Origin: Escherichia coli
GTDB lineage: Bacteria; Pseudomonadota; Gammaproteobacteria; Enterobacterales; Enterobacteriaceae
Strand: one strand, 5' to 3'
Length of the DNA stretch: 974 nucleotides
Assembly (NCBI RefSeq): GCF_003334815.1
Contig: NZ_QOWO01000111.1
Shown: one piece after another, positions 102-974 of the stretch
How the letters are laid out: each line of letters opens with the position of its first letter
How positions within the stretch are numbered: the stretch's first letter is position 1
Notes under the pieces: model-generated
What the model was told of the DNA's origin: nothing
Seen by the model: the letters and a program-made list of their open reading frames with translations, nothing else
Databases searched by the model: none
Translations under genes and position numbers: made by a program

Positions 102-974
102 ATGCTGAGCAGAGAGGACTTTTACATGATAAAGCAAATGCGCCAGCAGGGCGCGTACATTGTCGATATTGCGACTCAGATTGGTTGCTCTGAACGGACG
201 GTCAGACGCTACCTCAAATACCCTGAACCGCCAGCCAGAAAGACCCGCCACAAAATGGTTAAGCTGAAACCGTTTATGGATTACATCGACATGCGCCTGG
301 CAGAGAATGTCTGGAATAGTGAGGTTATCTTCGCGGAGATTAAGGCAATGGGTTATACGGGCGGACGTTCCATGCTGCGTTACTACATCCAGCCCAAACG
401 TAAAATGCGTCCGTCAAAAAGAACAGTTCGCTTCGAAACTCAGCCTGGATACCAGCTCCAGCACGACTGGGGCGAAGTTGAGGTGGAGGTTGTCGGGCAA
501 CGGTGCAAAGTTAACTTTGCGGTTAATTCGCTGGGGTTCTCCCGCCGCTTCCATGTCTTCGCCGCACCAAAACAGGATGCTGAGCATACCTACGAATCAC
601 TGGTTCGCGCCTTCCGCTACTTCGGTGGTTGTGTGAAAACGGTGCTGGTTGATAACCAGAAGGCTGCGGTGCTGAAGAATAACAACGGGAAAGTCGTGTT
701 CAACTCCGGATTCCTGTTGCTGGCCGACCACTATAACTTCCTGCCACGGGCATGCCGTCCACGCAGGGCCAGAACAAAAGGTAAGGTTGAGCGAATGGTG
801 AAATACCTCAAGGAGAACTTCTTCGTCCGGTACCGCAGGTTCGACAGCTTCACTCATGTTAATCAACAACTGGAGCAATGGATAGCCGATGTGGCTGACA
901 AACGGGAACTTCGCCAGTTCAAAGAAACGCCGGAACAGCGCTTCGCGCTGGAGCAGGAACATCTGCAGCCGTTA
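102..974 (+). CDS. istA: IS21-family transposase IstA, 3'-partial (291 codons, continues beyond the window)
   Basis: ATG at 102 preceded by an RBS; open frame 3 with no stop through 974. Hand translation: MLSREDFYMIKQMRQQGAYIVDIATQIGCSERTVRRYLKYPEPPARK...QLQHDWGEVEVEVVGQRCKVNF...VLVDNQKAAV...TKGKVERMVKYLKEN...EQEHLQPL. It has an N-terminal HTH and an integrase-type DDE core. Not in the ORF track because there is no in-window stop. Confidence 0.92.
   Translation, partial: MLSREDFYMIKQMRQQGAYIVDIATQIGCSERTVRRYLKYPEPPARKTRHKMVKLKPFMDYIDMRLAENVWNSEVIFAEIKAMGYTGGRSMLRYYIQPKRKMRPSKRTVRFETQPGYQLQHDWGEVEVEVVGQRCKVNFAVNSLGFSRRFHVFAAPKQDAEHTYESLVRAFRYFGGCVKTVLVDNQKAAVLKNNNGKVVFNSGFLLLADHYNFLPRACRPRRARTKGKVERMVKYLKENFFVRYRRFDSFTHVNQQLEQWIADVADKRELRQFKETPEQRFALEQEHLQPL
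150..215 (+). other. istA: N-terminal helix-turn-helix DNA-binding region of IstA (about residues 17-38)
   Basis: Segment GAYIVDIATQIGCSERTVRRYL has the typical helix / G-turn / recognition-helix pattern of transposase N-terminal HTH domains. Boundaries are approximate. Confidence 0.6.
465..791 (+). other. istA: DDE catalytic core of IstA: D122 (465-467), D184 (651-653), E230 (789-791)
   Basis: Seen in sequence: HDWGE motif (first D), VLVDNQ (second D) and TKGKVERMVKYLK (E followed by K/R at +1, +4 and +7). Spacing is D-61-D-45-E, typical of rve-type integrase/transposase cores. Confidence 0.75.

Follow-up and report, generated by a model that had tools for sequence, protein, structure and literature searches.

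The window, by which we mean the whole 974-nt stretch of Escherichia coli DNA analyzed here and which makes up an entire public NCBI contig, carries the inverted repeat region of the left end of IS21 (positions 1–58, plus strand) and the 5′ part of the transposase gene istA (positions 102–974, plus strand; codons 1–291 of 390), which is cut by the contig end. Translation of the window in frame 3 gives 291 sense codons and zero stops from the ATG at 102 to base 974; a TAA at 72–74 closes the frame upstream, the open stretch begins at base 75, and the ATG at 102 is the earliest ATG, GTG, or TTG within it. None of 20,000 mononucleotide shuffles of positions 102–974 remained open across 291 codons.

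The product of this frame is the N-terminal 291 of the 390 residues of an IS21-family IstA transposase. It matches the NCBIfam equivalog NF033546 (“IS21 family transposase”) with 280.4 bits (E 1.9e-83; model positions 2–292 of 294), the curated cut-off being 160 bits, and IS5376 IstA (PDB 8q4d/8b4h) matches it over residues 1–290 (E 6e-70). The exact 291-aa product is present in NCBI as RCR40624.1/WP_114476224.1, “IS21-like element IS21 family transposase, partial” (Escherichia coli), and complete E. coli records annotate the matching place as istA, 390 aa. A preliminary description, made from the letters alone, had proposed a 291-codon open frame from ATG 102 to the window edge that encodes an IS21-family IstA; translation and the shuffles bear out the frame, and the NF033546 and IS5376 matches, together with the Pfam HTH and rve domains found in the 291-aa product, bear out the identity.

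The domains follow the order of those in IS5376 IstA. HTH-1 (residues 12–39; positions 135–218, plus strand) is matched by Pfam HTH_23 (E 4e-4) and HTH_7 (E 1.9e-3) and aligns with HTH-1 of IS5376 IstA (residues 1–39), and residues 1–104 as a whole align with HTH-1 and HTH-2 of that protein. The RNase H-like DDE core is matched by Pfam rve (E 3.9e-13) over residues 113–222 (positions 438–767, plus strand). Three plus-strand codons, D122 (GAC, 465–467), D184 (GAT, 651–653), and E230 (GAG, 789–791, just past the rve envelope), align with D124, D187, and E233 of IS5376 IstA, the catalytic triad identified there by mutation and cryo-EM (PMC10122671), and all three are invariant across nine enterobacterial relatives. 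By the domain limits given in PMC10122671, the window encodes HTH-1, HTH-2, and the whole DDE core, with the beta-barrel and C-terminal region outside it; the C-terminal, Mu-transposase-C-like beta-barrel domain (PF22483) is found in the 390-aa products of six loci that share the identical 974 bases (L002–L007; related loci are numbered L001 onward).

Upstream of istA, the left end carries an outermost repeat, L1 (TGTCAGCGCCAGTGAT, positions 1–16, plus strand), and an inward, L2-like copy of the motif (TGTCCGCTCCACCCAA, positions 43–58, plus strand), which is short and not significant alone. The left terminus TGTCAGCGCCA (positions 1–11) and the reverse complement of the right terminus TGTCAACGCCA are identical at 10 of 11 bases, and the terminal inverted repeats begin with TG (ending CA-3′), with the motif repeated at 43. 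Such multiple direct repeats (L1-L2/R1-R2), bound by IstA, have been reported for IS21-family ends (PMC10122671).

A Shine-Dalgarno-like AAGGA (positions 90–94, plus strand) lies 7 nt upstream of ATG 102 and would, on a reading of the letters, serve as its ribosome-binding site. A second in-frame ATG, Met9 (positions 126–128, plus strand), preceded by GAGAGGA at 112–118, is a putative start that sits where the shorter IstA isoform (“cointegrase”), in which the initial 8 residues are missing, would be expected to begin (PMC10122671, citing Schmid et al. 1998). The −10-like hexamer TATAAG (positions 16–21, plus strand) in the left end is a candidate −10 half of a junction promoter, such as has been described for the IS21 family (PMC9330008): the right end of the complete element finishes with TTGACA, and the spacer to TATAAG at an abutted right-left junction amounts to 15 nt plus the junction bases, that is, 17–18 nt with 2–3 junction bases. 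By analogy, the TTGACA/TATAAG pair may act as the promoter of a tandem or circular IS21 junction; within the 974 bases there is no complete sigma-70-like promoter. A search of the window against Rfam gave no match to an RNA family. Window positions 936–950 form a short perfect hairpin, CAGCGC-TTC-GCGCTG, with its right arm beginning at base 945, where IS21 variants differ (L033 has G>T and L034 has G>A).

Identity of the Element

Hundreds of annotated copies match the window along its full length at 99.5–99.8% identity, and the closest complete E. coli plasmid and chromosome records (99.8% over 974 bases) are annotated “istA: IS21-like element IS21 family transposase.” On the IncN plasmid NZ_LT985242 (L001), the base that corresponds to window base 1 opens a 2131-bp element, which is flanked by the target-site duplication TCTT and encodes istA (390 aa) and istB (265 aa) with a one-base overlap. 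Base 1 of the window aligns with the first base of this complete, flanked element and is therefore the outermost position in the left inverted repeat. The window shares with IS21 the left end and the start of istA; its complete siblings have the 2131-bp length, the sizes of IstA and IstB, and, in L001 and L006, a 4-bp duplication.

We therefore assign a probability of about 95% to the reading that the window is positions 1–974 of the 2131-bp element IS21, comprising the left inverted repeat (including the repeats bound by IstA), a ribosome-binding site, and istA codons 1–291, and that istA is cut only by the edge of a short contig. The name IS21 is supported by the NCBI naming, the element length, the gene sizes, and the length of the duplication. 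IS21 is a textbook insertion sequence, in a family whose target-site duplications reach up to 8 bp; the element length of 2131 bp, the 390-aa IstA, the 265-aa IstB, and the 4-bp duplication agree with its ISfinder entry.

Sibling Loci and the State of the Element

The identical 974 bases occur in L002–L009. In six of these loci (L002–L007), which were found by searching for the full-length protein, all 974 bases run on, with zero mismatches, as IS21; an intact 390-aa istA is present in 6/6, having been the search criterion. The protein that joins the window to the remainder of the L001 istA is found exactly on at least 24 contigs. At least 24 other contigs thus carry the 974 bases onward into a 390-aa istA, which makes the 3′ truncation an assembly edge; for the source genome, where the window ends at 974, continuation is deduced from these sibling contigs.

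The six siblings differ in what follows istA. L006 is a complete 2131-bp element with istA and istB (265 aa) intact and the target-site duplication ATAC, in a context unlike that of the other siblings, and a complete element with a duplication in a different context implies that this variant has been mobile, alone or in trans. L003–L005 are full length, but G1885A (IS base; locus about 4784), which reads as TGG Trp204 to TGA, stops IstB at residue 203 of 265. Their flanks (TTCG vs. TGCG) do not form a target duplication, a hint that one end has been rearranged. In L002 and L007 the element is cut inside istB at IS base 1659/1660 (locus about 4558) and the right end is lost; both lie in the same plasmid context, with a Rep3 replicase and a ParE toxin upstream, and the cut joins a FinO/ProQ region. 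The target-site duplications are 4 bp long (TCTT in L001, ATAC in L006), and the window itself carries no flank.

The istA stop and the start of istB, which the preliminary description sought downstream, are thus found on longer contigs, which carry the frame on to a 390-aa IstA, with istB overlapping istA by one base in L001. Its interpretation fared less evenly: the identification of istA stands, but “undisrupted, possibly active” does not follow from a window without the last 99 istA codons, istB, and the right inverted repeat. Judged from sequence, the window cannot tell activity, and its siblings appear mixed, with one of six intact, three of six carrying the istB nonsense change, and two of six having lost the right end.

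Several other IS21 copies and remnants came to light. A remnant of IS21 bases 1–425 (99.5% identity) on E. coli plasmids accounts for about one-third of an evenly spaced sample of 3,392 matching records. Many E. coli chromosomes (L015–L017; L015 2501–2899) carry a decayed, frameshifted IS21-like fragment corresponding to IS21 bases 883–1280 at about 92–93% identity, which adjoins an MFS transporter gene and, in one strain, lies beside IS1A; NCBI labels this relic a “Mu transposase domain-containing protein” pseudogene, and 68 of its bases (915–982) are identical to IS21. On plasmid pC4101 (L034, locus 1–3686), IS100 (IstA 340 aa), in opposite orientation, interrupts IS21 istA at about 689–694, so that one IS21-family element is nested in another. 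A 5′-truncated istA starting at residue 174 (IS base 621) on 33 contigs marks another recurrent contig or remnant boundary in IS21.

The Contig Edge at IS Base 974

The right edge of the window is shared by other assemblies. L009 is a 974-nt Logan contig of run ERR271425 (ERR271425_538), seen in five samples, and two further contigs from other runs end at IS base 974: L008, a 9.5-kb contig whose retrieved locus includes a unique left flank of 3 kb, and L010. Among Logan, ENA, and NCBI contigs, at least 23 (L022–L031 among them) start at IS 943–945, and these come from two IS21 sequence variants. Logan uses k=31, for which bases 945–974 are the exact k−1 overlap; the shared ends at 974 and the starts at 943–945 therefore mark 974/975 as a recurrent branch point of the assembly graph. 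The contig start exactly at IS base 1 indicates a collapsed repeat, and the window may stand for several collapsed copies.

A copy cut at 974 is not normally met with in biology: of 1,030 complete-genome E. coli records, only 2 are partial across IS 944–1003, neither of them ending at 974, and complete genomes contain very few copies, if any, that are cut at 974 or start at 945. Across complete E. coli genomes, the 30-mer 945–974 is confined to IS21 copies and the chromosomal relic. A de Bruijn simulation at k=31 with all the related loci collected never reproduced the 974 branch, and exact-pattern scans for 942–974 followed by a base other than C, and for 945–975 after a base other than C, gave 0 matches in genome, metagenome, and viral collections.

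None of the candidate branch partners accounts for the break. The related elements (the Yersinia pCad element, ISEc62, a Klebsiella remnant, and a Citrobacter element) share no exact stretch with the window near 974. For the chromosomal IS21-like relic, the shared exact stretch 915–982 predicts breaks at 944/915 and 982/953 at k=31, not at 974/945; the relic would fit only k=61, and Logan uses k=31. None of the variant SNPs at 929, 945, 947, 960, 967, 983, and 1007 predicts a break at 974.

The competing explanation that survives best is that the contig is wholly or partly a remnant of an IS21 that is itself truncated: one or more copies in the source genome would end at 974 or be interrupted after it, with that istA a pseudogene. 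We consider this unlikely, as we do the reading that a second copy in that genome diverges at base 975, although several observations are what it would predict. Two copies identical up to 974 and different from 975 would yield a node of exactly 1–974, with a start at IS base 1 as expected of a collapsed repeat with two or more left flanks, and the complementary contigs do start at 945 (975 minus 30), but no junction of 942–974 with a different next base was found in the genome, metagenome, and viral collections. The end coordinate 974 is likewise common to other assemblies, yet in L008 it is approached through one unique 3-kb flank, something that a second truncated copy at a separate location leaves unexplained, and the starts at 943–945 occur in two IS21 variants, which argues for a shared graph artifact or partner and not for one truncation event. 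IS21 remnants are common in general (1–425 on many IncF plasmids, 1–313, 1–167, 1–994 cut by IS2, and 1–694 cut by IS100), whereas the two complete E. coli records that are partial across 944–1003 both end elsewhere than at 974.

A bolder reading, which we hold to be quite improbable, is that the 974/975 break might be a real, undescribed structural feature, either a widespread split or rearranged IS21 or a recombination or insertion hot spot within istA in some E. coli lineages; to the same low estimate belongs the separate idea that a substitution carried by the window, Ala131Val, could alter IstA activity.

Variant Bases of the Window Lineage

The window differs from the closest complete copy of IS21 at two bases, 493 and 563. 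The difference at 563 is synonymous; that at 493 (plus strand) is a T for C that changes GCC to GTC, giving Ala131Val, and is private to the IS21 lineage of the window, since all other IS21 variants compared have C at this position. Residue 131 is Ala in all eight related proteins and Glu at the aligned position of IS5376 IstA. The substitution is lineage-private and conservative, and its position varies in the single distant homologue that was compared; it lies near the first catalytic aspartate and could conceivably change IstA activity. The variant occurs in L006, the intact element with a target duplication.

The exact 974-base variant is absent from complete E. coli genomes and PLSDB plasmids (best match 99.8%), and a first scan of genome contigs for the window-specific variant gave 0 matches. 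It has been seen in draft assemblies only, with at least 24 contigs encoding the full-length 390-aa A131V protein, and short-read assemblies seem to be all that represents the lineage.

Related Elements

IS5376 IstA from Geobacillus stearothermophilus, the structural model for the family, shares with the window the order HTH-1, HTH-2, DDE, and its triad aligns; its host is a Gram-positive thermophile and the protein a distant orthologue, and IS5376 makes 5-bp duplications in vitro (PMC10122671), in contrast to the 4 bp in L001 and L006. Closer relatives are ISEc62 and elements on Yersinia pestis pCad and on Citrobacter plasmids, which share gene order and a 390-aa IstA at 92–96% protein identity. 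At the nucleotide level they are 86.6–92.4% identical to the window (86.6% for ISEc62, 91–92% for the unnamed Yersinia and Citrobacter plasmid elements) and form separate sequence clusters, with few exact 31-mers in common with the window element and none near 974. IS100 and IS100kyp belong to the IS21 family and occupy the same hosts, but IS100 IstA has 340 aa and that of the window element 390. MuA and Tn7 TnsB have tandem HTH domains, a DDE core, a beta-barrel, multi-repeat ends, and an AAA+ partner (MuB and TnsC, respectively, as against IstB) (PMC10122671), yet the analogy is one of mechanism only and does not extend to family membership, since in Pfam and NCBIfam the window matches IS21 and rve models.

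The presence in the same hosts of related elements at 85–92% identity (ISEc62 and the Yersinia and Citrobacter plasmid elements) raises the alternative of a distinct, unnamed IS21-family element in place of IS21 itself. This we judge very improbable: NCBI names both the exact product and the 390-aa form “IS21-like element IS21 family transposase,” the length (2131 bp), the protein sizes (IstA 390 aa, IstB 265 aa), and the 4-bp duplication fit IS21, and the named relatives are clearly farther off (86.6–92.4%).

The Open Reading Frame List

The istA frame is missing from the list of open reading frames that accompanied the window, because the list takes closed ORFs only and leaves out those that run off either end of the sequence. 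Its three entries, which are all the closed ORFs that reach 60 aa or more, lie in another frame or on the opposite strand relative to istA: a 73-aa ORF (positions 30–251, minus strand), antisense to the conserved istA frame; a 109-aa ORF (307–636, plus strand) in frame 1, which overlaps it; and a 121-aa ORF (597–962, minus strand), antisense to istA and unannotated in complete records. None of the three matches an NCBIfam family, even at E ≤ 1, and none is a gene. The preliminary description was accordingly right that all three listed ORFs are off-frame or off-strand and that the real gene is absent from the track, run-off ORFs being excluded by definition. That one of them, such as the 121-aa antisense ORF at 597–962, is the real gene and the long open frame fortuitous has practically no probability, since the three are indeed the sole complete ORFs of at least 60 aa but lack any family match and are annotated in no complete record, whereas the frame-3 product has a family match at E 1.9e-83 and a solved homologue, and 0 of 20,000 shuffles opened 291 codons.

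Discussion

Published work on the IS21 family suggests how the sequence in the window would function in a complete element. The two N-terminal HTH domains of IstA would read the repeated motifs in both IS ends, and an IstA tetramer would synapse the two ends (PMC10122671, PMC11208146). The RNase H-like core, with D122, D184, and E230, would then cleave at the terminal CA-3′ and join the ends to target DNA, which the AAA+ helper IstB, encoded just downstream of istA, would capture and deliver, the insertion leaving a 4-bp duplication. A shorter isoform starting at Met9 and a promoter formed at a right-left junction may be added to this scheme from the same literature. The contig itself begins at a repeat boundary (IS base 1) and stops at a recurrent branch point of the graph (IS base 974).

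The finding is already known, in that the exact partial gene has a name in NCBI and the window is an ordinary IS21 contig, and it carries little biological weight, IS21 being well known. For short repeat contigs of this kind, ORF lists that drop run-off ORFs miss the only real gene, and an unbroken partial frame says nothing about the wholeness or activity of the element.
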